Shown: positions 11,537 to 25,359, numbered from the stretch's first letter. The stretch is DNA of 64,000 nt from Candidatus Bathyarchaeota archaeon (GCA_963767735.1 CAVYES010000008.1:203605-267604), one strand, 5' to 3'. Numbers and translations are program-made. The notes: generated from the letters alone by a model not told the origin.

Positions 11537-14500
11537 TTAATTAAAATCAAAAAGTTTAGCTTGTTTGGGTTTTTTGTTATCGAACATGGAAGCTATCTCT
11601 TCTTTTATAAGATCCATGCGTTGGGTGTAATAGTTGGGTAAGCCATATGTGTCAACAAGTTGCTGAGCTGCCACAAGATACTTCTCTATGCCACCACGAT
11701 AAACGGTAAGAGTCAGCTTTCCACCGCAGAATGGGCATTTCCCTTTGAGAGGCAGTCGACGGAACTTTTTGTTGCATGATTTGCACCTAAACGCTTGCGT
11801 TGAGAAAGCACGTAAATTCCCTGCTATGTCTCTGATGAAATGGGTGGTTAAAACTTTCAAAGCGACGCGTTCGACGTCTACAGCGTCAATTTTTTCGCCT
11901 AGCTCCAGTTGCATGTTGAGTTTTTCAATCATAGATTTGAATTCTTTGTAGGCGCTGTTAGCGTTGCCGAGGTTTATGTTTGTAACGGGAGTGGTGTATT
12001 GGAAGCCTTCAAACTGGGCTTCAGTTCCAAGCCTATGACTGATGACATCCATAATTGAACTCACGGGTCTAGCTTCGGCTTTCTCCAGAGTTTTTTGGTA
12101 AAATTCAAGCGGATAAGAAGCGTCAACGTCAAAATCATGCGCTTGCCTCTGCACTTCCTTGGTGTTAACAAACGGAATTAAAAGTATAGGAGCATCCATA
12201 ATTCCGCCGATCTGAGCAGGCAAATAGACACGAGAAAAGTTCAGAAGCGTATCCAACGCCAGCATAATCGCGTCTTCATCACCGTCACAGTCCCGGCGTT
12301 TGGCTGAGTGCCAAATCGGATGAGCATAAATCAGGTTACGATCCGTGTAACCAACAATGCGACCTAAAATGCAAGCGCACGTGTGGGGGGCTAAACCAAA
12401 AACCAAATGCCCAACGAGGTCTTCTGGCTTCTTAACGTTATAGTAAGGTGGAAGCTTGTAGACTCTTGCGAGCAAATCGTCAATGAAAGCCGCGATCTGA
12501 ATAAAGTATTCCCCTGCCTTGCTAGGGAATCACAATATCCTGAACCTTGAGCTCACAAACCTGATTAGGATCAGTCAAAGATGCGCCGTGTGTGTCGTAG
12601 CTGTATCCTAACTGCCTAATCTTTTCTACGGGCACTCCAACTTCGGCAGGCGTAAAATGCGTTAAAGGAGCGTTGGTGGCGTCAAATCGGATTGTGCCAT
12701 CCTTGTAAACAGATAAGCCATATTTAGCTCGCAAAATTCCTTTTTCGACTATTTCAGGAGTTTTGTCTAGGTTCGTTAAGCCTTTGACGCCTCTTAGAAT
12801 TTTCGGAGCTGGATAACCAAGCGACTTGCACGCGTCATCTACCATTTCTTTAAAGTTAACTGGTTGCCGCTGGTATTGAACTCCTTCTGTTTTACAGGTG
12901 GGGCAACTGTTATCTTTTACAGCCTTGCCGCAACGAGGACAACTTTTTTCAGCAACAGTGTCGCATCCGCAGTTGAAGCATTTTACCCTTAAAGTGTAAG
13001 TTTTACAGTTAGGGCACTTCCTCTTAACCATGTCGACAAACACAGGACCCTGCTTTGCAGCTTCCAAAAGGTCTCTATGTGAACCGCCAGCTAAGCTTAC
13101 TGGAAAAAGAACATGAACAAGAGGCTTCATTTCCCGCCTTTTAGCCTTCTCAGGCCTTCCCATGCGGGCACCTACAAAGGTCGGTGCTTTGTCCTTAACT
13201 TGCACTCCTGAAAGCATGCTGATTGCCTCGAAGACAGAAGTAGTCTGAGTGCCCTCAATCGTATTTGTGGTGCCGCAGCCAAGACAGAACGCTAAAGCGG
13301 CGGCATCCTCGCCTTCCAGCAAAATCCTATTACTAATTAGTTTATGAGGAGCAAAGATCAATCTAAGTAACCTTACAACATTTTCATTGGCTTCGCCGAA
13401 AATTTTGCAAACGCATCCATCTGCCAAGGCGACTTCGCAGGAACCCAGCCATTTTTTCAGCACCTCAACTTCTTGAACATTGGTTAAGCTTGCCCAAAAG
13501 AATGTACGGGCGGGGTGCAAAGGTATGCCCATGCGAAGGCTGAGAAGTATTGCCTCTTTAGTCGTTGGTTTATTTCTAAAGGGGTCATCTAGAAAGCTTT
13601 TGAGCCTTTCCGCAGAAACCTGAGTGGCATTTGCCGCTTTCGCAGAATCTGAGCTAAATTTTTGGGTCAGAGCGCCCTGTAGGTCTTTAACCCACCATTC
13701 CTCCACGTATCCCGAGGGAGGAAGCCCCTTGCTGGTATAGAGAAAGTCGCCAAAACTAATCAGGATGTCCCCTAGAAACAAGATTTTTTGGACCTTGCCT
13801 TTTATCTCCGGAAAATTTTCCATTGTTACTCGAACTACAGAATTATCCTTCAACAAAACAATGGGGGACTCAATAGTATCCACAGGAAGCGTAACGCAGC
13901 CTTTTCCTGGAAGCTCTAAGCGCATTTGGGTGCCTGCCGCAAGAAAATTCTCAACAACAAGCATAGTGGCGGGGTGGATGCCTACAGCTGAAAGGCCTGT
14001 GTTTCGTGATCGGCCATACCTTAATCTGAAGCCGCCTCGTCTTGAGGGGAAAGCGAAAATTGGTCGTCCCGCAATCACATCGTCCATAAAGCCGCCTGAT
14101 TTCTTTTCAGATTTCTTTTTGAAATCTTTTAGCCAATCCCAGCCTTGGAAACCGATCTTATCGATAATCACGAAAACTTTTTGGGCCCGTCCAACGATGC
14201 CGTCGTTTACCACGCGAAGGGCGCCGCCTCTGACGCGGTTAGTTTCTACTCTTGGGAGGTTTCTGTAGGAGGAAACTTCAACTGGGTCTGATTCAGTTCC
14301 TGTGCATTCGACTGGAATGAGGTTAAGCGCCCTCCTTAATTCCTCGTCAGGAATGTGATATTGGAAACGGCCAACTGATCGTTCATATAATCGCAATTCT
14401 TCTATGAAGCGGGAGATTTCCTCCTCCGTCGGCTTGTACTTATCCAAGCCAAGCTGGGTCCGCACGAAGTCTCCCACGACTAAAGTTAACGCTTGGTCTG

Positions 14501-14948
14501 TTCCACCCGCTGACCTTATTGGACCTGCAAAGTAAATAGCCAGGTAACGTGTCCGATCGGCGTTAGTTTTTATTTTTACGTGAGCTATGCCTTGTATTGG
14601 CGCTGCGGTTAAGCCTTCAGTGAAAATTGCCAGGGCAGTTCGTATTGCCTGCTCAGCCGCTTTTTCAGGTTCCATGTGACCAAATTTGCCTAGGACGGTT
14701 TCTTCAGCAACTTTGAATGCGATTTCTTCTCTTTGCATTTTAGTGCTTAATTCTCTGATGCTGAGCGCAACGCCTTTGGGTCCAACTAGCCCTTCCACTA
14801 AGTCAGCAATGTCTTGGGCAATAATGCACTCAGTTTTCAACGCGGGGTCAAAGCCTTCTGATCTAGCGCTGTCGCTTAACGCATACAATCGCTTGAGCTC
14901 ATTTCCCATTGTGTCAACGTAGTTTTGATAACCCTTGCTGATATTCAA
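11537..14948 (-). CDS. polC: DNA polymerase D large subunit DP2 (one apparent indel near 12525)
   Basis: GPIRSAGGT, GFRLRYGRSRNTG, RMGRPEKA, KDGTIRFD, KRRDCDGDED catalytic motif. The two ORFs join as VIP/SKAGEYFIQIAAFIDDLLAR. Confidence 0.95.
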
Positions 14949-15038
14949 AGTGCAGCTTCCAGTGGCAACATATAGAGTAATGGGTTATTTTGGCTTTCTT
15001 AAAATTAAACGGAAATCTAATCCCAAGTCTGCCAAGCA

Positions 15039-15795
15039 TTAAACCTTAATGCTTTTGATTGCCTTAATGATTTCAGAGATCCTTTGTTTAGCATCACTTG
15101 ACTCAGTAACATTGCCGGTGACGATTATGTCTGCTCCTGCAGATACAGCAGCTACGGCTTGCTCTTTAGTTCTTATTCCTCCGCCCACTATGAGTGGAAT
15201 TTCAATCACATGCTTAACTGCGTGGATCATTTCTGGGGGTACGGGATTTGCTGCTCCAGAACCGCCTTCCAGATAAATGAAGCGCATCCCAAGGTATTGG
15301 CCTGCAAGGGCATGAGCGGCTGCAAGTTCAGGCTTAGAGTAGGGCACCGAGATGGCTTTTCCTACAACACCTGCAGTGCCGCCGTCTCCAACAATTATGT
15401 AACCCATGGAAATAGGTTCTAAACCGTACTTTTTGACGAGCGGTGCGCCAAGAATCTGAGCGCCCATAAGAAAATAAGGATCAACCGAATTCAGAAGCGA
15501 CATAAACCATATGGCGTCGGCGTAACTGCTAATTCCAGTTATGTTGTTTGGGAACAGTATTGTAGGAATTTTTACTGCGGACTTTATGTTCTTTACTACG
15601 TCGTCAAGGTGGGCTTGAGAAGCAAATGTTGAGCCTCCAATCATTATGGCGGCGGTTCCGCTATTTGCAGAATTTTCAGCAATGCGTGAAGCTTGTAGGG
15701 CTGACACTTTTTCTGGGTCGATTAGCGTTATGTGGATTGATCCTTCGAGCTTTTATTTTTTCGAGTAAGTACTTTTCGATAGGCCCTAGCAAAGC
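15039..15795 (-). CDS. Geranylgeranylglyceryl phosphate synthase (indels in the 5' part)
   Basis: HITLIDPEK upstream in another frame; IMIGGST, FMSLLNS, YLEGGSGA, VGGGIR. Confidence 0.9.
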
Positions 15796-15808
15796 TATTA
15801 TCCTTCGA

Positions 15809-16078
15809 TTATTCTTTTTTTACGTTGGTTATAGGTGTTCTTTTTGTAGAACCATAAACCCGGTCTGTGAGCATACAGTAAACGTCAACTTCGCCTTGCG
15901 CTGGTTTAACGGGGAATTCTTCTTTAAGACCACAACTACTGCATTGTGCAACGGAATGACCACCGTCTTCTCTGGATATTTCAACTTTTACCGTTTCTTT
16001 TCCGCATTTTGGGCAAGAGAAGAATTTAGGTAAACGTTTCTTAGGAATATGAACTACTTTTTTCCTTCTTCGCCCCAA
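15809..16078 (-). CDS. elf1: Elf1-like transcription elongation factor
   Basis: MGRRRKK..LPKFFSCPKCG..CSSCGL..VDVYCMLTD. Confidence 0.85.
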   Translation of the reverse strand: MGRRRKKVVHIPKKRLPKFFSCPKCGKETVKVEISREDGGHSVAQCSSCGLKEEFPVKPAQGEVDVYCMLTDRVYGSTKRTPITNVKKE

Positions 16079-16123
16079 ATAACAGCCTTCTAAATTGATG
16101 ATAATGTTGAATGATATTTATGC

Positions 16124-17020
16124 TTGTCCTTAAATACTTGCCTAGAAACCAAGAATATGAGGCTGCGTGAAAGCCAAGTGAAATTAACGCCTTCTGTCTT
16201 AGAAATGGATTTCTCAGAAGCTCAAAAAAGAATTTGCCGCTTCATTAAAGAGTACGTGGAAAACGCTGGGGCAAAAGGCATAGTACTGGGTCTTTCAGGG
16301 GGAATCGACAGTGCAACAATTGCAGCACTTTCAAGTCTTGCAATAGGCGGAGACAACGTGTTGGCTCTGATGCTGCCGGAAAAAGAAAACTTTAACCAAA
16401 AAGACATCGACGATGCAAAAGTAGTTGCAGACAAATTTAAATTGCAAACACAAATCTGTGACATGTCAAATGTTTTAGAAGGCTTCTACAACAGCATTCC
16501 AGCGTTTGAGCCAAAAGACAGGCTTTGTAAGGGCAACATTAAAGCAAGAACTAGAATGATTTACCTCTACTATTACGCTAACAAACTTAACAGAATCGTT
16601 TGCGGAAGTTCTGACAAATCAGAGACAATGATGGGCTACTTCACTAAGTGGGGAGACGTCGCCTCCGATATAACGCCAATTATGGATTTATACAAAACAC
16701 AAGTTCGCAAACTCGCAATTCATTTAGGAATCCCAGAGGAGCTTGCATTAAAGCCTTCTACACCGGCGCTTTGGCCCAACCAGACTGCAGAAAACGAGCT
16801 TGGAATCAAATATGAAACCTTAGACCTAATTCTTTATGGGATAGAACGGTTTATGACTACTGAAGAGATTGCAAGTCAACTAAGCATTGAGAAGTCTATC
16901 GTTGACAAGGTTAAGATCAGATGGCTCGCAAATGAACATAAAAGAAGAATGCCATTACCCCCCAAAATTGGATATAGAACTGTGGGAAATGATTTTAGGC
17001 TTCCCAGACATACCTATTGA
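16124..17020 (+). CDS. nadE: NAD+ synthetase (synthetase domain only)
   Basis: GLSGGIDS, GNIKARTRM, GYFTKWGD, DLYKTQV. Confidence 0.95.
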   Translation: MSLNTCLETKNMRLRESQVKLTPSVLEMDFSEAQKRICRFIKEYVENAGAKGIVLGLSGGIDSATIAALSSLAIGGDNVLALMLPEKENFNQKDIDDAKVVADKFKLQTQICDMSNVLEGFYNSIPAFEPKDRLCKGNIKARTRMIYLYYYANKLNRIVCGSSDKSETMMGYFTKWGDVASDITPIMDLYKTQVRKLAIHLGIPEELALKPSTPALWPNQTAENELGIKYETLDLILYGIERFMTTEEIASQLSIEKSIVDKVKIRWLANEHKRRMPLPPKIGYRTVGNDFRLPRHTY

Positions 17021-17868
17021 AAAGTGGAAACAACATGAAAGACAAGATAAAACTTGCCCTTGCCCAAATAAGCAGTAAACGAGAAAACAAAGAGGCAAAT
17101 CTACAGAAAATAGAAACATTAACCTGCAAAGCCAAAGAGCAAGGGGCAGATTTAGCCATTTTCCCTGAGATGTCATTAACTGGCTACGTGGTTAGAGATC
17201 AATTCTACGAGTTAGCTGAAACAATCCCCGGACCCACAGTTGAGAAAGTGGAGGCGTTGGCAAAGAAGACAGGGATGCATGTTATTTTTGGGATGCCGGA
17301 GTTAAGCGAAAAAACAAAAGCCACAATCTTTAACACCGCCGTCTTTGTTGGTCCAAAAGGTTTAATCGGTAAATACCGAAAAATGTATCTGCCAACTCAC
17401 AGCGTGTTTGAAGAGAAAAGGTACTTTCGCCCAGGTTATGAGACAGCCGCGTTTCAAACCGATTTGGGCAACATTGGCTTATGCATTTGCTATGACATTT
17501 TCTTCCCTGAAGTGCTTAGGCTTACCCGTTTGAAGGGAGCACAATTAATCGTCTGCATATCCGCATCTCCAGCTGTACGAAGAAGCTACTTTGAAACTTT
17601 AACTTGCGCCAGAGCAATAGAAAACACGGCTTACCTCGCTTACGTGAACCTTGCTGGCGTTCAAGATGGCTTGCAATTCTGGGGAGGAAGCCGACTTGTT
17701 AGTCCAACTGGAGATGTTCTTGCGAAGGCAAAGTATGATGAGGAGGATTTTGTCACCTGTGAGGTAGATTACAGTGACCTGAGAACGGCAGAAACATTCA
17801 TCCCCACCCTAAAGGACCTTAGACCTGAACTTTTTGATAAACTAAAAGAGTACTCAGAAGGTCTATAA
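17017..17868 (+). CDS. Carbon-nitrogen hydrolase (nitrilase family)
   Basis: Catalytic triad FPE / YRK / ICYD; adjoins nadE. Confidence 0.9.
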   Translation: MKSGNNMKDKIKLALAQISSKRENKEANLQKIETLTCKAKEQGADLAIFPEMSLTGYVVRDQFYELAETIPGPTVEKVEALAKKTGMHVIFGMPELSEKTKATIFNTAVFVGPKGLIGKYRKMYLPTHSVFEEKRYFRPGYETAAFQTDLGNIGLCICYDIFFPEVLRLTRLKGAQLIVCISASPAVRRSYFETLTCARAIENTAYLAYVNLAGVQDGLQFWGGSRLVSPTGDVLAKAKYDEEDFVTCEVDYSDLRTAETFIPTLKDLRPELFDKLKEYSEGL

Positions 17869-17902
17869 TTCGAAAAGGCGATTGCAAAGCTAAGCAAGGG
17901 AA

Positions 17903-17995
17903 ATCACAAAGACATCACAAGCCTATCACAATGCTGTGATATCAAGTGACTTGATGGTAAATCACCGTGATTTTAATGTGACAACATGACGTCAC
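17903..17995. repeat. Array of 9 RTCAC/GTGAY motifs
   Basis: Motifs start at 17903, 17914, 17925, 17936, 17946, 17961, 17967, 17978, 17991; includes TGATATCA and TGACGTCA palindromes. Confidence 0.8.
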
Positions 17996-18376
17996 GCTAC
18001 CAATTTGAGTTTATTATTAGCCTTTTGGCATAAAAAAGTGAATTGATGAATGTTTCAACAGAAGCTGGCAATGATAATAAGTGAGTTTTAAAATAGCTTG
18101 TTAAAGCATGAATATCGGTTAGGAGCGACTTTGAAAAACTGCATTTTTGTTTAAAATTCACGGTAAAGCCAGCACCAGATATCGAATAATTTTGCCATTT
18201 ATCTGTTAATCGCACTTATTAATTGGCTAATTGAATAAAAACACTCACATTCACCGTATTTTGATGATTAACTCGTTTTTCGCGGCATTTATGACCGTCT
18301 GATAAAGTGGTTTTGCTTGGGCAAGACTTAAAAACTCGACTCAGTATACAAAAGCGTATCCATTTAGGCTACGGAG

Positions 18377-18868
18377 ATGACAGCGAGTTTGAAGCTAAAA
18401 GACGGCGTTCAAGCATGGCTAAACGGGGCATTAAACGACCCCATTGTAAAAATATTGGCTAAAAACAGCCAATTAACCAAAACACAACTTGAAACACTGC
18501 TAATAGACATTTTAGCCGAGAACATCTCGGGCAAACAGTTAAAGTACGATGAAAAAGCCGATTTAAGACTAACTAAGGCTAAAATAAGCCGCGGCTCCTT
18601 TAACAGGACGTTAAAACAGTCTAAAGAAAACGTGATAAAATCAATCTACACGGTACTACTTTTAGGATATTTAGGAGTGTTTGACAGCACAACTCTTGAC
18701 CCATATCTCGAAATAGCCAATAAACTGCACCAATATGTGGAGGCACACCAAGAGGCACCCGACAAGGAGGAGGAGCTAAAAGACCATCTAAAAGTCATAG
18801 AAATCATTCGGGAAGAGCTTGAAACAAGCCTAAAACGGCTTTCTAGTCCATCAGAAGAGCACTTGTGA
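18377..18868 (+). CDS. Uncharacterised protein with predicted helix-turn-helix
   Basis: SQLTKTQLETL..LKYDEKADLR..KISRGSFNRTLKQSKEN resembles a Tfx/sigma-region-4 type HTH followed by a helical C-terminus. Confidence 0.6.
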   Translation: MTASLKLKDGVQAWLNGALNDPIVKILAKNSQLTKTQLETLLIDILAENISGKQLKYDEKADLRLTKAKISRGSFNRTLKQSKENVIKSIYTVLLLGYLGVFDSTTLDPYLEIANKLHQYVEAHQEAPDKEEELKDHLKVIEIIREELETSLKRLSSPSEEHL

Positions 18869-19197
18869 CGTCACAAATCACAGATAAAACCGAGTATTTT
18901 TAAATATCAAAGGAAGTACGGAAAGTCAAAATATAAAGGTCATTTACAAGTCTTAATTTTAAAAATAACCTCAAATCACAGCTATACTATTGAGAGATGA
19001 ATGCGAAGATAGTAGAGGAAAATAGTTGTGACATGTGATATCATGACAAGCATGGCGATAACGTCACCGTAAACCTTAAAAAGTCCATGGATTACTGTGA
19101 TGTGTGATGCAACTGATTAAATCACGTGCAAGTCACAGGGATGAAAAATCACGGTTGATTTTGTAACGATAATTTTGGGCGTTTTGCTTACCGTGAC
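18863..19197. repeat. Array of 13 RTCAC/GTGAY motifs including the perfect palindrome TTGTGACGTCACAA
   Basis: Motifs at 18865, 18870, 18877, 18975, 19028, 19035, 19063, 19097, 19104, 19121, 19132, 19148, 19193. Confidence 0.8.
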
Positions 19198-19876
19198 CGT
19201 CGCAGCAACAGTCGAATATTATAGGCAAATACGTAAGGCACAAAAAGAGTATGAGAAAGCCAAAGGTGTTGTTGAAGACATAGTTCTTAGTTTTAACCGA
19301 GATCTCAAGCGTGGAGCCGACAAACTAGATTTAATCGCGTTCAAAATAGAAGGAAACTTGGCCAAAGCGGACACCAGCCTAAAAAAAGTAGACACTTTAG
19401 AAAAAAGGCTATTGCCTATCGAAAATCAAATGGGCACTATTTCACAGACGGTTTCACAGAGTACCAATAAAATTCTCTCAGGATTAACAGATTTGGAATC
19501 TAAAATTAGAGATATTGAAGGGGCACAAGAGACGTTAAAATTGAAGATAACAGGCTTTGAAGAGCAAATTCAAAAGTTCAACGTTACTCCAGAAATCAGC
19601 GAAACCGTCATCCCAATTAAACGTGACAAAGCAATGGCCTCATTAACAGACACAGAAATCACAGTGCTGGAAATGTTATCTTCAGAGGGACCCAAAACAG
19701 CGCCAGAAATCAAAGACAGAGTTAAACTTAGCAGAGAACACACAGCAAGACTAATGAAAAAACTCTATGAAGAAGGATACTTAGAACGCGAAGTAGGCAA
19801 AATACCCTTCAGATACAGCATCAAAAAAGAGATGGAAAAGATACTGAAAAAGTCCGAGAGCAGCCCCTCGGCATAA
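19141..19876 (+). CDS. Membrane-anchored coiled-coil protein with C-terminal winged helix
   Basis: Likely start ATG 19141 with one extra A, giving MKITVDFVTIILGVLLTVTVAATVEYY (TM). A heptad-rich middle follows, then LTDTEITVLEML..TAPEIKDRVKLSREHTARLMKKLYEEGYLER (wHTH). Confidence 0.75.
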
Positions 19877-19899
19877 ACCGCAAAGAAAGCGTCTCGTGA

Positions 19900-19977
19900 C
19901 TGCCCAACCGACAAGAGTTATCCTGTCTCTACCATAGCGGTAAGTGTATGTTCCTTTTCAGGCATCCACGCCAACAG
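19900..19977 (-). ncRNA. Candidate structured RNA (multi-hairpin junction)
   Basis: Three adjacent hairpins on the minus strand (one CCT-GAAA-AGG), closed by a G-U-rich stem; lies between convergent genes. No family recognised. Confidence 0.3.
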
Positions 19978-20067
19978 TTCTACTCAAATTGTACTTACCT
20001 AAATTCGCGCTAAATACTTCTTAACCCAACAAAATTTATTTCAGTTTACTTCTCTTAGCAACTCAAG

Positions 20068-20496
20068 TCACTTTATTCTTTGTTTTATAGTTGCCTGAGA
20101 AATATTCGCTGTTTTGTACTTTAAGCTATTTGGCCCACCGGTCCTTAACAGCATACCTTTACTTGTCATCCTGGAAAGATAAGTGGAAACGGTACTAAGA
20201 CTGACGGGTTCCTTAAGTTCCTGTTCATAAACAGACTGGATGTCCTTTGAAGAAAACCAAATCAAGGGAAAACTTTTCTGAATCACTGACTGAACTTTTT
20301 CGAAGCGTGAAAGTACACGATTTTGCAAGGACGCTCCTGTGCCCGTGGTTGGACCCTCGCCTGGTGCGCCGCCTAGCAATTCAACAAGATCTAAGAGTCG
20401 TAGAGCTTTGTCGCGGGTAACTTGACCCTCGAAAGCAATAGTATATCGATTTCCATCGCTATCGAACAGCTCAACACGCATTTTACGAGCTGGCAT
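20068..20496 (-). CDS. Two-domain protein with C-terminal winged helix, divergent from cdc6
   Basis: Small N-terminal beta-beta-alpha domain, Gly/Thr linker, WFSSKDIQSVYEQE..VSLSTVSTYLSRMTSKGMLLR wHTH. Confidence 0.7.
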   Translation of the reverse strand: MPARKMRVELFDSDGNRYTIAFEGQVTRDKALRLLDLVELLGGAPGEGPTTGTGASLQNRVLSRFEKVQSVIQKSFPLIWFSSKDIQSVYEQELKEPVSLSTVSTYLSRMTSKGMLLRTGGPNSLKYKTANISQATIKQRIK

Positions 20497-20693
20497 TTAG
20501 TGTACACCACGAGGGTTGCTTCACAACTTTATACTTCACAGCTTATAGCTGTTATGGTGAATGATGAAATATAGAAAAAGCAGAATACAGCTTATTATAA
20601 TTAAATAGCCACAATTTTCATTCTTTTCAGCATAACGGACTTCACAGTAAATTAGATTAGCTGGATAATTAAGGTTCTTGCCTGGTTCCGCTT

Positions 20694-21303
20694 TTCCAGT
20701 AGAAGCGTAGGGGTGGCTTGTTAACAGTAAAGAGACAAGAAAAAAGTAATTTGAGGCAAAAGCAAACTGATTAAGCAGCAAATTTAATGATATTTCACAT
20801 GTATTCACAATTTTGTGAACCAAAAATGGGTGTGAGCTAAAGAAATTTATGGAAAGTTCATCCTAACTTGGAATTTAGAGAGATTATTGTCAATAAAACT
20901 TTGTTTCCGTTTCAATAAAGACAAATTACCATGGTAAAAATCATCTAACAGGCACCCCTGTGTTTCCTGTCGAAGTCTTCAAGCAAAAAAGAAGTAAAGA
21001 AATCTTAGGAAAAATATTTGCAGTAATCTTATCTAAAAATTTGGATAACAACTATTAATATATCAAAATATTATTAATACCTTAGAGTATATTACCTAAT
21101 TATAGTAAATAGTTGTTCTTTACGTTAATTCACAAATTTTTTCCAGTAGAAACTTTGGGGTGTGCCTTGTTCTTAATTTGCTCAATTGTTATCAGATGTT
21201 TTCATTGTTTTTTAGGATAGTTGTGCTTTAGAACCATTTTTTTGTACTGATTCCTTTATCTGTTCCAGACGAAATAAGGGTTGAGCCTCTGAAAACTAGG
21301 GGA
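20694..21303. promoter_or_regulatory. Replication origin (oriC) with ORB boxes and AT-rich DUE
   Basis: ORB-like TTCCAGTAGAAGCGTAGGGGT (20694,+), TTCGACAGGAAACACAGGGGT (20954-20974,-), TTCCAGTAGAAACTTTGGGGT (21141,+), TTCCAGACGAAATAAGGG (21263,+). An inverted pair flanks AT-rich 20975-21140, directly upstream of cdc6. Confidence 0.9.
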
Positions 21304-21311
21304 TTGGAGAA

Positions 21312-22553
21312 ATGGGAAATTCAAACGTATTAGATGATGTGTTCGAGAGTTTCGTTAATGGGGTTCGGCTGTTTAAGGACAGAGAGGTTCTCAGACACGA
21401 TTATCTTCCCGAAAAATTACCGCACAGAGAAGACCAAATAAAATTATTAGGACAAACAGTCGCGCCAGTTCTAAAGGATGCAAGATGTTCAAACATTTTT
21501 ATTTATGGAAAAACTGGGACCGGAAAAACAGCGGTTACAAAATACGTCTTAAGCCATCTAGAATCGAAAGCAAAGGAATATGGTGCGCCCGTAAAGTTTT
21601 GTTACATAAACTGCCGAATGACTGGTTCAGAATACCGAGTTTTCGCAAGCCTAAGCCAAAACCTTGGTATGTCAATCCCTTTTACAGGCTTATCTGTTGG
21701 TGAAGTGTTTGATAGGTTCAGAGCAGGTTTAGATTCTTCGAAAATAATTTTCATAATAATTCTCGATGAAATTGATGCCTTGATCAAGGACCGCGGAGAC
21801 GCTTTCATGTATGAGTTAACAAGGATAAATGAAACTCTAAGTAAAAGCAAAGTTTCAATAATCGGCATATCAAATGACCTGCGCTTGAAGGAGTTTTTGG
21901 ATCCTAGAGTTTTTAGTTCTCTTAGCGAAGAAGAACTAGTTTTCAGGCCATATGACGCAGCTGAACTTCGAAACATTCTTCTTGAACGCTCAAAATTATC
22001 TTTCCAAGAAGGCGTTTTGTCTGATTCCGCATTAAGTATTTGCTCAGCTTTGGCTGCTGCAGAACATGGCGATGCAAGGCGAGCTTTGGATTTGTTGCGT
22101 GTTGCTGGAGAAGTTGCTGAGCGGCAAGGTGCCAAGTTGATTACAGAAGAGCATGTGCGTCAGGCAGAGAAGCATATTGAGCATAACCGAGTGGTTGAAG
22201 CGCTCAAAAATTTAACATTGCATTCAAAACTGGTGCTTCTTAGCGTTTATCACTTAAACAAACCAAGTGCTACCACAGGCGAAATATACGACGTTTACAA
22301 TGAACTGTGCGGCGAAATGGGTGCTGGTCTTCTGACACAACGCCGATTAGGCACGCTAATTAACGAGCTTGATTCCATGGGGCTTGTGAACGCGAAGGTT
22401 GTAAGCATGGGGCGGTATGGCAGAACCAAAAAAATCAGGCTTGAAATTTCAAGAAGCCTCATAAAGGATGTATTTGGCAACGATAACAGATTTAGTAGCC
22501 TGCTCAATTATTCCCTGCAATCCTCGCATAAAGGCTCAAATGGTACTAGCTAA
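21312..22553 (+). CDS. cdc6: Orc1/Cdc6 replication initiator
   Basis: LPHREDQI, Walker A GKTGTGKT, Walker B ILDEID, HGDARRALDLLR, GRYGRTK. Confidence 0.97.
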   Translation: MGNSNVLDDVFESFVNGVRLFKDREVLRHDYLPEKLPHREDQIKLLGQTVAPVLKDARCSNIFIYGKTGTGKTAVTKYVLSHLESKAKEYGAPVKFCYINCRMTGSEYRVFASLSQNLGMSIPFTGLSVGEVFDRFRAGLDSSKIIFIIILDEIDALIKDRGDAFMYELTRINETLSKSKVSIIGISNDLRLKEFLDPRVFSSLSEEELVFRPYDAAELRNILLERSKLSFQEGVLSDSALSICSALAAAEHGDARRALDLLRVAGEVAERQGAKLITEEHVRQAEKHIEHNRVVEALKNLTLHSKLVLLSVYHLNKPSATTGEIYDVYNELCGEMGAGLLTQRRLGTLINELDSMGLVNAKVVSMGRYGRTKKIRLEISRSLIKDVFGNDNRFSSLLNYSLQSSHKGSNGTS

Positions 22554-22567
22554 ACCCTCTGAGAAAA

Positions 22568-24127
22568 TTAGTTAAATGAGAGAACAGTAGTCTCCAGCGT
22601 TTGCAAGTTTACCACTGGAACTTTTCCCGGCGTAGGAACCAACCCTAATTTCTCCATGTAATCGGTCTGTTCTTGCCAGCCGCCTGAATTCACAACCAAC
22701 ACTCCGCGGTAATTGCAGTAACCTAAAACGTGAATATGCCCCGCATGAAAGATGTCTGGAACTCTATCGATGACCAGGTAATCACGGTTTTCTGGAGACA
22801 ACATGGTTTTTCCACCATAAACTGGCGCTAAGTGGCGACTTTGCATAAGTAGCCTCATTGCTTTTTCTGGGTGATCATGATCCATTCCAGGCAGAACAGC
22901 GATAATATCGTCTAAACTGCGGCCATGATACATTAAAACTTCTACTCCGTGTAGACTTAACAGGCATGGGCTTCCAACAGAGTGAATGTTCTTTTTACCT
23001 TGCATTCCCGTCAAATAGCCTTCTGGTATGGCAGGTTGGGGTAAAGCTTTGCGTGACGCATCATGGTTGCCTGGGGAAATAATTATTTCAATGTATTCAG
23101 GGATTTTTTCCAGATATTTCGCGGCAAAATTGTATTGTTTATGGACGTCTCGTATGGATAGTTCTTTTGCTTGGTTGGGGTAAACTCCAACTCCGTCAAC
23201 AATGTCGCCTGCGATTAGTACGTATTTTACTCTGCCTGCTATTTCCTTCATTTGCTCGTTTCCATATTTCCCCTTAAGCCAAAGTATGAACCGTTTGAAT
23301 GCTTCTTTTTGGAATTTGGTGCTGCCAATGTGAAGGTCTGATGTTAAGACAGCGTAAACTGGTTCTTGTGCTCTTTGTTGGGTTTTTCTGCCTATTTCAG
23401 GGAAAATTATGTCCTCAGCTAAGAAAAGGTTAGTTCTTGTTTTTATCACTGCCAAACAAACTACTTGATCAGGCAAAAGAAGAAGCGCTTTTTTCCTGAC
23501 TTCTTCTGGTGCTTTTTGCGGCACTAAGACAGTTGTGCTTCCCAGCAAGTCTTCAACTGATAGTATCATTTGGTTTTTTGATTCTCTTTTTTCTGTTATC
23601 ATGCAGATTATTTTGAGTTTTGTTTTAGCAGGTGATTTGAGTGCTTCAAGTATTGGTGTTGCAGCTTTAACGTCCATTCTTTGTCTAAGCAAGCGTTCAA
23701 TTCGTTTAAACCTGTCTTGGAAATATTCCAGATATTCTTCAAGGGTGCCGTTGGAGCTAAGTTTGCCTGTTGAATCTTCCAGAATGTTAATGTTTGCTTT
23801 TATGTCCTTGGCGTAGGGATAAAAAGTGCTTTCAACTGTACTTATTTGCTGCGGTGTTGGTGGCTCTACGGCGTTTTGTTGTTGCTGAGGCTGTGTTTCT
23901 ATGAGGGGTGCTGTTAGCTGTTGCACTAAGGTTTCTAAGAATACTTTGTCTATGAAGAACGGTTTTTCTTGCAAGTCTGCTAGCTTTTGAAGTGCCAAGT
24001 TTATAATGCCAACTGGGTCGGTTGTGTCTGAGTTTTGGCTTAAGAATTCAAAGGCTTCGCTGTTTAGTTGGTATCCCGCTGCGATTGTTGCTTCGATTGC
24101 TTTTTGCAGTTTTTCTTTTTCGCTCAT
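22568..24127 (-). CDS. polB: DNA polymerase D small subunit DP1
   Basis: SDLHIGS, AGDIVDG, PGNHD, YHGRS, RHLAP, GHIH phosphoesterase motifs plus OB fold. Confidence 0.95.
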   Translation of the reverse strand: MSEKEKLQKAIEATIAAGYQLNSEAFEFLSQNSDTTDPVGIINLALQKLADLQEKPFFIDKVFLETLVQQLTAPLIETQPQQQQNAVEPPTPQQISTVESTFYPYAKDIKANINILEDSTGKLSSNGTLEEYLEYFQDRFKRIERLLRQRMDVKAATPILEALKSPAKTKLKIICMITEKRESKNQMILSVEDLLGSTTVLVPQKAPEEVRKKALLLLPDQVVCLAVIKTRTNLFLAEDIIFPEIGRKTQQRAQEPVYAVLTSDLHIGSTKFQKEAFKRFILWLKGKYGNEQMKEIAGRVKYVLIAGDIVDGVGVYPNQAKELSIRDVHKQYNFAAKYLEKIPEYIEIIISPGNHDASRKALPQPAIPEGYLTGMQGKKNIHSVGSPCLLSLHGVEVLMYHGRSLDDIIAVLPGMDHDHPEKAMRLLMQSRHLAPVYGGKTMLSPENRDYLVIDRVPDIFHAGHIHVLGYCNYRGVLVVNSGGWQEQTDYMEKLGLVPTPGKVPVVNLQTLETTVLSFN

Positions 24128-24381
24128 TTTGATCGTGTTCTTGTTAGCAAGTGAGTAAGTGCAAGCTTAATGTTTAGGCTCTTATGCTTTTGCGTTATTT
24201 ACTGTTTTTTGTTTGCAGGATAAATTTTTGAACGTTTAAGGCTTCTGTTGATTTACTGGTTAAATATCATAGCGTTTACTGTAGCGTTGATTACGTATTA
24301 ATTGTTAATTATTCAAAATCAACTTAGTTTATATAAATGATCTATAGTTTAGATATGTTATATCTTGATTGGGGTACCGTT

Positions 24382-25359
24382 ATGGGTGAATTACGGAAAG
24401 TTCAACAAACACCAACTGGCACTTTTTTTGTTTGTTTGCCTAGAGACTTGGGCTACAACAGAATGGTTTAAAAAAGGGCGCTTTAGTAAGTTTGGATGTA
24501 ACTAGTGATGGCAAGCTCATTGTTGATGCTGCAATATAATGTTGAGCCACCGCCTAAAGTTACTTCTTTAAACGTTGGTCCTTATCTTGGTCGGGAGATT
24601 ATCGGTCGTTATCTTCTTGGCTATGACTGCATCGATATTGTTGCAAAGGATCGAATTGACTCTGATGTTAGAAAGATAGTGAAGTCAACTGCTAGTTCAC
24701 TGGCTGGTTTAGAGATAGTTGAGGAAACAAGCTTCAAAAATTTCCTTGCAAACTCTAATGCAGCAGCCATCTGGGTTTATTCCTGAAAAAATTTTGCAAC
24801 GCAACTATGCTATTGTGGCTGGGATGATTCGTGATGCCGCTAACTCTTTTATTATGGAGACGTAGAGTTGGCTAAGAACGTTATTGAGAGAGATGCTGAG
24901 AGTAACAAACTGTATTTTTTGTTGGTTAGAATTTTACGAACAATAATTCAAAATCCACGTTTAAGTGAGAAGCTTGGAATTACTCCGATAGAATGTTTAG
25001 ATTATCGTTTGGCTGCAAGTTTAATTGAAGGCATAGGTGACGCATGCGTTCAGGTGGCTGCAAAAACCATAGCGCTTAATGGAGTGAAGTTTTCTGGAGA
25101 ACTGCAGAAATTACTGGTTGATTTGCAAGCTATCTGTTATGAAGCTCATGAGCAAGCGTTGAAATCGTTTGTAACTAAAGACATTGCTTTGGCTGAGAAT
25201 GTGCGTAACCTCCGAGGAAAAATCGATGCAACTTACACAAACATTGAACGAGTTGCAAAAGAGTCTTCTGTGGATTTGATGCCTCAAATTTTGGCAGCGG
25301 TTTCTTTCCTTAGGCAGATTTATGAACGCAGCGTAGACCTAGCGGACTTGGTCGTTTAA
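24382..25359 (+). CDS. AbrB-PhoU phosphate uptake regulator (frameshifted)
   Basis: N-terminal RKVQQT..FFVCLP AbrB motif; PhoU repeats RDAESNKLYF and LRQIYERSVDLAD over several frames. Confidence 0.8.

Follow-up and report, generated by a model that had tools for sequence, protein, structure and literature searches.

A conserved trio of DNA-binding-type genes and its TCAC-core arrays beside the replication origin in Bathyarchaeia

Beside the replication origin in a 64,000-nucleotide stretch of a Candidatus Bathyarchaeota archaeon genome (GCA_963767735.1, CAVYES010000008.1:203605-267604; hereafter the window, with positions counted from its first nucleotide) lie three genes for DNA-binding-type proteins, g1 (18377..18868), g2 (19148..19876) and g3 (20068..20496), accompanied by dense arrays of short TCAC-core sites. 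The locus is best explained as an ancient, vertically inherited module of three DNA-binding-type proteins with their own predicted cis-sites beside the origin. As to its function, we tentatively favour, at somewhat less than even confidence, a self-regulating nucleoprotein locus that would act as both operator and centromere-like mark and would tether origin-proximal DNA through g2. Chromosome placement and segregation in archaea beyond Sulfolobales are an open question, for which the locus offers three uncharacterised proteins and their predicted sites at the single origin, and its conservation in cultivable, ammonia-oxidising Nitrosopumilaceae makes the hypothesis experimentally testable.

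Conservation of the gene trio and its order

The window carries, in order, NadE, a nitrilase gene (17017-17868), g1, g2, g3, an origin of the origin recognition box (ORB) type, cdc6 and the gene for PolD DP1. This arrangement was compared with 20 loci from 9 families of the same order and with 20 loci from 13 other families. The order g1-g2-g3-ORB-cdc6-PolD DP1, with either 0 or ~2.6 kb inserted between g2 and g3, recurs in 20/20 same-order loci, and the flanking genes rearrange; cdc6 is present in 17 of these loci, the remaining three being cut by contig ends. Beyond the order, cdc6 lies at most 9 kb from g1 in 13 of the 20 loci (9 of the 13 families), including Nitrosopumilaceae (family f19), in which the genes run PolD DP2-GGGPS-g1-g2-g3-ORB-cdc6-DP1. 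Synteny with cdc6 in relatives was the check that the first-pass annotation of this DNA had set in advance for its idea of an origin-linked system, and these counts uphold it. Its claim of three DNA-binding-type genes beside oriC and cdc6 also stands, through a Pfam match for g2, a sub-threshold Pfam match for g3 and a predicted helix-turn-helix (HTH) for g1.

Within the order, each of the three genes turned up in 35-37 of the 41 genomes searched. The trio is single-copy and vertically inherited across two classes, and its sequence identity falls with taxonomic distance in the same way as that of neighbouring core genes.

TCAC-core arrays around g1 and g2

The TCAC sites are confined to ~3.3 kb, and the arrays are located 1.4-2.8 kb from the first ORB-like element (ORB1). 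Array A (17901..17996) holds 9 RTCACR half-sites in 96 bp, starting 33 bp past the nitrilase stop codon and lying ~380 bp upstream of g1, and includes the palindromes AAATCAC-C-GTGATTT and TGACGTCA. Site B (18865..18882) reads GTGACGTCAC-aaa-TCACA and lies over the g1 stop codon (TGA, 18866-18868); its first ten positions (18865-18874) form the only perfect GTGAYRTCAC copy in the window. Array C (19027..19153) extends over the g2 promoter and leader, with sites up to the g2 start, and comprises GTGACATGTGAT (19028-19039), TCACC (19064), the TATA-like CCTTAAAAAG (19074-19083), GTGATGTGTGATG (19097-19109) and, at its end, three aaaTCACg repeats that are 11-16 bp apart and reach the start of g2.

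These clusters stand out clearly from their surroundings. The 64 kb contain 392 TCAC/GTGA cores (6.1/kb), of which 9 fall in each of the 200-bp bins 17801-18000 and 19001-19200, every other bin of the window having at most 4. The 8-mer ANRTCACR occurs 37 times, compared with 25.2 +/- 5.2 in shuffled sequence, and 2% of the window (17901-19153) accounts for 15 of the 37 matches. When the 3.04-Mb genome is ranked by core count in 150-bp windows, array A comes first (10 cores) and array C joint third (8 cores). The arrays proposed in the first-pass annotation are therefore real and unique in the genome. Its statement that the spacers of the trio are packed with TCAC repeats applies to the nitrilase-g1 spacer (14 cores, 27.6/kb) and the g1-g2 spacer (11 cores, 35.9/kb), but not to the g2-g3 spacer, which contains a single core (5.2/kb); the g3-cdc6 spacer has 9 cores (11.0/kb), mostly in the form TTCACA. 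Elsewhere in the genome, GTGAYRTCAC, paired heptads and the g1 palindrome described below occur only at chance-level copy numbers.

The arrays are conserved in density, composition and position. In 21/21 loci, the g1-g2 spacer has a TCAC density of 25.9-53.8/kb, compared with 4.8-9.5/kb locus-wide, and array A is kept in the 9 aligned same-genus loci. GTGAYRTCAC recurs at the 3' end of g1 in 23 of 38 loci, comprising all 21 same-order loci together with L153 and L155. In Nitrosopumilaceae, GTGAY clusters occupy the 3' end of g1 and the g1-g2 spacer, as they do in Bathyarchaeia. The 274 sites of 21 orthologous spacers give the half-site consensus A-n-R-TCAC-R, and neighbouring sites are most often spaced 7 bp apart in direct orientation (53 pairs), 10-12 bp direct (47) or 6 bp inverted (35). 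Of the 131 same-orientation neighbour pairs, 53 have the 7-bp register, more than any other direct spacing, in runs of just 2-3 repeats.

Other TCAC-dense windows of the genome were considered as further arrays and rejected, being purine-rich repeats or coding sequence of unrelated kind; intergenic purine-rich tandem repeats of the GTGAGGAAAAGTGAAGGAA type, for example, account for TCAC/GTGA-dense spots at C7:18143, C7:381262 and C4:135680. In several other families (L038, L039, L041, L042, L043 and L047), array A lies upstream of a small gene, g0, of ~106 aa, which has no Pfam family and was not found in the genome of the window. In these loci, the nitrilase-g1 interval also carries a convergent aminotransferase-like gene, the coding sequence of which contains a conserved cluster of 4-5 GTGA/TCAC cores (such as TCACacGTGAct...GTGAttaGTGAcgTCACag); these cores may be either embedded binding sites or a coincidence of codon usage. 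The 380 bp between array A and g1 are poorly conserved and hold two genus-conserved blocks (18120-18170 and 18200-18225), one reading tttgcaaaagtgcattttttgtgtaaagtt in relatives (ctttgaaaaactgcatttttgtttaaaattc in the window) and the other being atagccgtttatatgttaa-like, for which a promoter, a further binding site and a small transcript are the candidate explanations.

Properties of the three proteins

The g1 gene (18377..18868, + strand) encodes a protein of 163 aa that is predicted to be all-helical, with an HTH at residues 22-97 and a helical hairpin at residues 103-156. An AlphaFold2 model built from an 86-row alignment (predicted local distance difference test, pLDDT, 91.2; predicted template modelling score, pTM, 0.83), which was used in place of an unusable fold from a 21-row alignment (pLDDT 47.6), consists of an N-terminal helix, the HTH and the C-terminal helical hairpin. 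Residues 21-104 of the model resemble EsrB, DesR, EnfR and sigma-4 domains at VIA Z 6.2-7.4, the best structural match of the HTH being EnfR (VIA Z 6.9, root-mean-square deviation 1.4 A over 52 residues, 29% identity); according to the tool's own warning, values below 8 may reflect a common arrangement and are non-decisive for helical proteins. Residues 22-97 of g1 probably form a Tfx/sigma-70 region 4/LuxR-like HTH. At the sequence level, g1 has no Pfam, NCBIfam or PDB match, a PDB profile search returning just coiled-coil noise; the 86 g1 relatives scanned share no Pfam family, and a Foldseek search of the model against PDB gave nothing at E <= 0.001. With 317 representative clusters, g1 is a new protein family without a Pfam model, and it is present in 154 of 301 Thermoproteota genomes, including 45/45 in Nitrosopumilaceae. 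A complex prediction for g1 with residues 16-233 of g2 scored 0.00 with the verdict 'no answer', which is evidence neither way.

The g2 protein (19148..19876, + strand) combines a hydrophobic N-terminus, a conserved juxtamembrane helix, a coiled coil of ~100 aa and a C-terminal MarR/TrmB winged helix. The latter is matched in Pfam at residues 157-216 by MarR (30.8 bits, cut-off 24.6), TrmB (28.1, cut-off 25.6) and HTH_27 (27.3, cut-off 22.2), and the build of an anchor plus a coiled coil is atypical for members of the MarR/TrmB family. The coiled-coil profile matches tropomyosin-like chains, and almost none of the protein is extracellular. All of the 21 orthologues have a hydrophobic 19-residue window (H 1.87-2.75) followed by basic residues, in keeping with the transmembrane segment that had been claimed for this protein, and the g2 of Nitrosopumilaceae is built alike, again with a clear hydrophobic segment. 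In two loci of families f23 and f36 (L145 and L150), g1 and g2 are separated by a gene that by eye resembles an XRE-type HTH fused to CBS domains.

The start of g2 required correction. It had been placed at 19141, where an ATG is present, but this codon is out of frame with the gene (736 bases to its end, with 17 stops) and opens a reading frame of only 5 codons. The g2 open reading frame (ORF) extends from 19145, and TTG at 19175 is the earliest canonical start codon in it (233 aa); in this genus, the earliest such codon falls within or after the hydrophobic segment. Translation from a non-canonical start is likely, because ATC 19148, where the conserved frame and its peptide I-T-V-D start, lies within the final TCAC repeat, 3-4 nt past a GGAG-like stretch, and a canonical codon comes only later. 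In the orthologue at L054, ATG, GTG and TTG are all missing before codon 54.

The g3 gene (20068..20496, - strand) is transcribed divergently from the origin and cdc6 and encodes 142 aa, in which a strongly conserved N-terminal domain of 45 aa is joined through a Gly/Pro-rich linker to a winged helix of BlaI/MecI/CopY-like type. Its match to Pfam Penicillinase_R is below the cut-off (20.4 bits against 22.6, E 7e-4), and a profile search of PDB gave a weak match to 2k4b (E 0.07). Neighbour clusters in the ESM Atlas, all of them of the g3 kind, carry PF03965 in 18-43% of their members. This gene is more widespread than g1 (200 of 301 Thermoproteota genomes against 154), and in 8 of 13 further loci it adjoins ORB-like elements or cdc6, including in families that lack g1 or have it elsewhere (f22, f24, f25, f42, f45 and f46); it has no ORB nearby in f26, f31 and part of f40. 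The member of the module that tracks ORB elements most faithfully is thus g3, rather than the arrays. Between g2 and g3 in Nitrosopumilaceae (L137, L139 and L140), an ORF of ~50 codons (MPNEQLIKITTAGTISIPK...) has, by eye, the look of a SpoVT/AbrB-type swapped hairpin.

Promoters of g1 and g2

The core promoter of g1 (18328..18361, + strand) contains a TATA-like TTAAAAA and, downstream of it, the palindrome GTATACAAAAGCGTATCC (18344-18361), which ends 15 bp before the g1 ATG. A strict search pattern, wTAyA-N4-5-yGTAw, finds this element upstream of g1 in 29 of 38 loci, and several of the misses carry one-mismatch variants. Loci of Nitrosopumilaceae, f26, f31 and f36 also have the palindrome, f40 has a GACA/TGTC variant of it, and the genome of the window contains no second copy. 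The operator known as the CopY box is TACANNTGTA (PMC7253601). The half-sites of the g1 palindrome (ATACA-N4-yGTAT) are those of CopY/BlaI operators, separated by a spacer longer than that in TACANNTGTA, and because of this identity of half-sites g3 is a candidate binder of the g1 promoter palindrome.

In the alignment of orthologous spacers, GTGATGTGTGATG sits 14-26 bp downstream of the TATA-like CCTTAAAAAG, at the expected transcription start of g2. A contig from an RNA library (98% identity) begins at 19134, which is weak evidence and fits transcription of the last repeats of array C. A metatranscriptome of peat, in which one run held 6% of the sampled words, yielded three contigs, located on g1, the 5' end of g2 and the start of cdc6; such contigs cannot show transcription starts, and the stretches that they leave uncovered are uninformative.

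A ParA operon with g1 and a variable HerA-like cassette

In family f40, which comprises thermophilic, HR02-like Nitrososphaerota, g1 is the last gene of an operon that also encodes a ribbon-helix-helix (RHH)-like ORF (115 aa, no Pfam match) and ParA, and g3 is convergent with it. For ParA the domain match is AAA_31 (E 5e-50); in 4 of the 9 loci with the operon, a ParB_N gene (E 3e-21) is found no more than a few kb away. The ParA-g1 operon is present in 9 of 13 f40 loci (8 genomes, 2 of 3 genera), compared with 0 of the 118 other loci examined; of the f40 loci that do not show it, one is truncated 37 bp upstream of g1, and the other three, all from the third genus, lack the operon. GTGAC repeats are located at the operon promoter and at the RHH/ParA junction. 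Of all the evidence from gene context, this operon points most strongly to a possible role of the g1 family as a centromere-binding partner. In 5 f40 genomes, g2 was not found, the only matches being weak ones to its coiled coil, which suggests, in a small sample of related genomes, that ParA and the membrane protein g2 alternate between lineages.

The window itself contains no ParA-like gene, and the best match of its genome to the f40 ParA has 27% identity and is located on contig C2. The description of the system as ATPase-free in the first-pass annotation therefore holds for the window only. Of the 18 same-order loci with both g2 and g3, 7 have a two-gene cassette separating them (L048:7979-10514, L037, L038, L039, L041, L042 and L043), one of these loci being in a same-genus genome. 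The cassette encodes a 339-aa protein without a Pfam match and a 515-aa HerA-like ATPase (DUF87, E 5e-8; PADLOC HerA/mad8, best E 3.5e-11). It is absent from the window, in which the g2-g3 spacer measures 191 bp, and the best match to it in the genome (E 1.7e-6) lies elsewhere. This insert may be a defence cassette rather than a part of the module.

Proposed function and alternative explanations

In the proposed mechanism, g3 would bind the TACA/TGTA palindrome and repress g1, and g1, with its putative dimerising hairpin and alone or together with g2, would bind RTCACR half-sites cooperatively. Bound g1 would cover the g2 start site and the sequences on either side (3' and 5') of g1 itself, thereby placing the module under its own regulation, and ~20 bound half-sites over 1.25 kb would give rise to a large nucleoprotein complex. 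A g2 dimer, held together by the coiled coil and with its N-terminal segment in the membrane, would attach this complex to the membrane, and with it the origin, which is 1-3 kb distant. Precedents for such a double role as operator and centromere are omega/parS of plasmid pSM19035 and the sites of SegB and AspA, and for the bridge to the membrane RicO. No dedicated ParA would be needed in Bathyarchaeia, and in the HR02-like lineage, in which g2 was not found, g1 shares its operon with a ParA gene. A broader claim, that Bathyarchaeia and Nitrososphaeria possess an undescribed origin-handling system, with g1 as a new class of centromere-binding protein on RTCACR arrays, g2 as a ParA-free membrane tether, the HR02-like g1 coupled to a ParA motor and g3 linking the module to the origin and to the control of cdc6, is less likely than not; if true, it would provide the first known origin-membrane anchor in archaea.

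Several observations weigh against a tethering role. In f26, f31, f40 and f42, g1, alone or with g2 or g3, has no cdc6 or ORB within 9 kb, and therefore cis-linkage to the origin is not required for function. Where arrays are seen in these off-origin families, they accompany g1 and not the origin, and in f26 TCAC sites persist even within the coding sequences of g1 and g2. On sequence grounds, the TCAC sites are predicted to belong to g1 and g2 and not to the origin as such, because off-origin families retain them with these genes. The whole block (PolD DP2, GGGPS, NadE, nitrilase, PolD DP1 and PhoU) is syntenic, so that proximity to oriC may reflect inheritance and not selection, and linkage alone proves little; related genomes, moreover, are not independent, and the counts overstate the support. 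The arrays are located on and around the promoters of g1 and g2, where autoregulatory operators sit, and none has at least 4 contiguous heptads, the requirement of omega/parS for ParA activation. In the genus of the window, g2 has no canonical start codon ahead of its hydrophobic segment, and the anchor thus rests on a non-canonical start; g2-like genes of f23 are, by eye, seemingly without a hydrophobic N-terminus. Finally, which protein occupies which site is a matter that we infer.

Much of this evidence fits an ordinary autoregulated transcription-factor circuit, perhaps controlling other genes, in which the three proteins would repress or activate each other by way of the arrays and the palindrome, the g2 anchor would serve for sensing or sequestration, as it does in one-component regulators bound to the membrane, and the closeness to oriC would be inherited. 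Such a circuit is the main alternative and a serious possibility. The palindrome between the TATA-like box and the ATG of g1 and the position of GTGATGTGTGATG past the g2 TATA-like box are as expected of operators, the domains come from regulator families (MarR/TrmB, BlaI/CopY-like and Tfx-like), the module is off cdc6/ORB in four families with its arrays staying with g1, and the entire block is syntenic. EnfR is a characterised repressor, a dimer whose promoter target is a pseudo-palindrome (PMC10570040). This protein (Thermococcus onnurineus TON_1525) is the closest solved HTH to g1, with no sequence-level match and with different target sites. However, ~20 half-sites over 1.25 kb, with one array 380 bp from any start codon, go far beyond the needs of autoregulation, and there is no visible regulon, because the genome has no such sites elsewhere. 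The ParA-g1 operon of f40, the TCAC-core sites within oriC and the near absence of an extracellular part of g2 for signal sensing likewise argue against a circuit of this kind. Even if the locus is only a regulatory circuit, it would offer a new g1 family, two conserved operators and the likely binding grammar of a Tfx-like HTH.

An accessory role in replication control, in which g3, and perhaps the protein that binds the TCAC sites, would act at oriC through the TTCACA sites and the divergent g3 and cdc6 promoters and would set cdc6 expression or origin firing, with g1 and g2 as its regulators, appears improbable. Its support comes from the faithful association of g3 with ORB or cdc6, from the wider distribution of g3 than of g1, and from the origin spacers of same-order loci, in 18/18 of which TTCACA is enriched (2.6-11.1/kb against 0.5-1.5/kb locus-wide). 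In addition, the palindrome TTCACAATTTTGTGAA (20804-20819), which is made of TTCACA/TGTGAA-type hexamers and lies between ORB1 and ORB2, is invariant in 10/10 same-genus loci (0/8 other loci). However, g3 is distant from ORB in f26, f31 and part of f40, and the strongest arrays are located beside g1 and g2, not beside the ORBs. Pfam revealed no similarity to WhiP/Cdt1 or other initiator-accessory proteins.

It is very unlikely that the locus is the relic of an integrated plasmid or virus replicon, with iterons and small regulators captured beside the origin. The iteron-like repeats, the small HTH genes, a slightly lower G+C content (0.37-0.40 at the trio locus, roughly 0.44 for the whole window) and the variable HerA-like cassette would suit such a relic, but the single-copy, syntenic and vertical conservation across two classes and an identity decay that parallels neighbouring core genes speak against it, and inspection of the ORFs in 13000-25000 revealed neither an integrase or rep gene nor a tRNA target. 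Least credible of all is that the repeats are a non-coding RNA or a chance or compositional effect, since the probable location of the last repeats in the g2 leader and the RNA-library contig from 19134 are set against sites in both orientations with DNA-type spacing and the lack of any Rfam match at E <= 1 over 15000-23000, and chance is excluded by the genome-wide rank and cross-class conservation of the arrays.

Comparison with known systems

The parS site of the Streptococcus pyogenes plasmid pSM19035, which belongs to a system of omega (ParB) and delta (ParA), consists of 7-bp WATCACW repeats, both direct and inverted, which overlap the promoters of omega/delta themselves and serve as operator and centromere (PMC9499535). 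The trio locus resembles omega/parS in its ATCAC-core sites, its prevailing 7-bp direct and 6-bp inverted spacing and its overlap with a promoter, here that of g2. However, omega is an RHH protein, whereas none of g1-g3 is predicted to be one, and the omega/delta system belongs to a plasmid, whereas the trio is chromosomal and has no ParA at the window locus. The site grammar also differs, with at least 4 contiguous heptads in omega/parS and runs of 2-3 in the trio arrays, mixed with ~11-bp spacing. The common ATCAC core is most likely a coincidence. Of the components of a ParABS system, the window locus has a cis-array near the origin and no co-encoded ParA, and g1-g3 have no ParB_N or RHH match in Pfam.

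In Staphylococcus aureus, RicO bridges origin-proximal motifs and the membrane without ParA (bioRxiv 10.64898/2026.03.06.710092). Like g2, the gene of which is located 1.4 kb from oriC, RicO unites a DNA-binding domain and a membrane element in one protein. The order is reversed, RicO having an N-terminal DNA-binding domain and a C-terminal amphipathic helix and g2 having a coiled coil between its two ends. The RacA-ram system of Bacillus subtilis combines an HTH and a long coiled coil with repeated sites near oriC and anchors the origin to the pole or membrane. RacA is not known to have a transmembrane segment, and its ram sites extend across hundreds of kb, unlike the trio sites, which lie within ~3.3 kb. 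The RacA model NF009647 matches g2 weakly, at 13.9 bits (cut-off 165), in the coiled-coil region only.

In the archaeal systems SegAB (Sulfolobus chromosome) and AspA-ParBA (pNOB8), the sites of SegB and AspA are located just upstream of their own genes and are read as centromere analogues, perhaps also operators (PMC5120986). The g1 gene of f40 follows the ParA gene as SegB follows SegA, whereas the Bathyarchaeia locus has no SegA/ParA. SegB is an RHH protein and AspA a PadR-like winged-helix protein; g1 is a predicted HTH protein.

At the level of abstracts and review passages, the trio is undescribed in the literature. The kind of system, with arrays acting as operators and possibly also as centromeres and a bridge between DNA and membrane, is known; the proteins, the spacing grammar and the lineage are new. 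A review from 2016 listed the character of the centromere and the orientation of the chromosome among the outstanding questions (PMC5120986), and in a passage of a 2024 review SegAB is the sole system named for TACK archaea (PMC7617429).

Origin region and cdc6

The oriC region (20497..21311) contains three ORB-like elements, at 20696-20714 (+), 20954-20972 (-) and 21143-21161 (+), together with an AT-rich stretch and seven TTCACA/TGTGAA hexamers, a flavour that differs from the RTCACR of the arrays. It is followed by the cdc6/orc1 initiator gene (21312..22553, + strand), which matches Pfam Cdc6_lid (3e-25) and Cdc6_C (6e-25). Origins of Nitrosopumilaceae (L137, L139 and L140) carry repeated GTTAACA motifs in place of the TTCACA of Bathyarchaeia. 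Two more Cdc6/Orc1 paralogues are encoded in the genome of the window (C3:79713-80822 and C6:598439-599200), with ~29% identity to the Cdc6 of the window.

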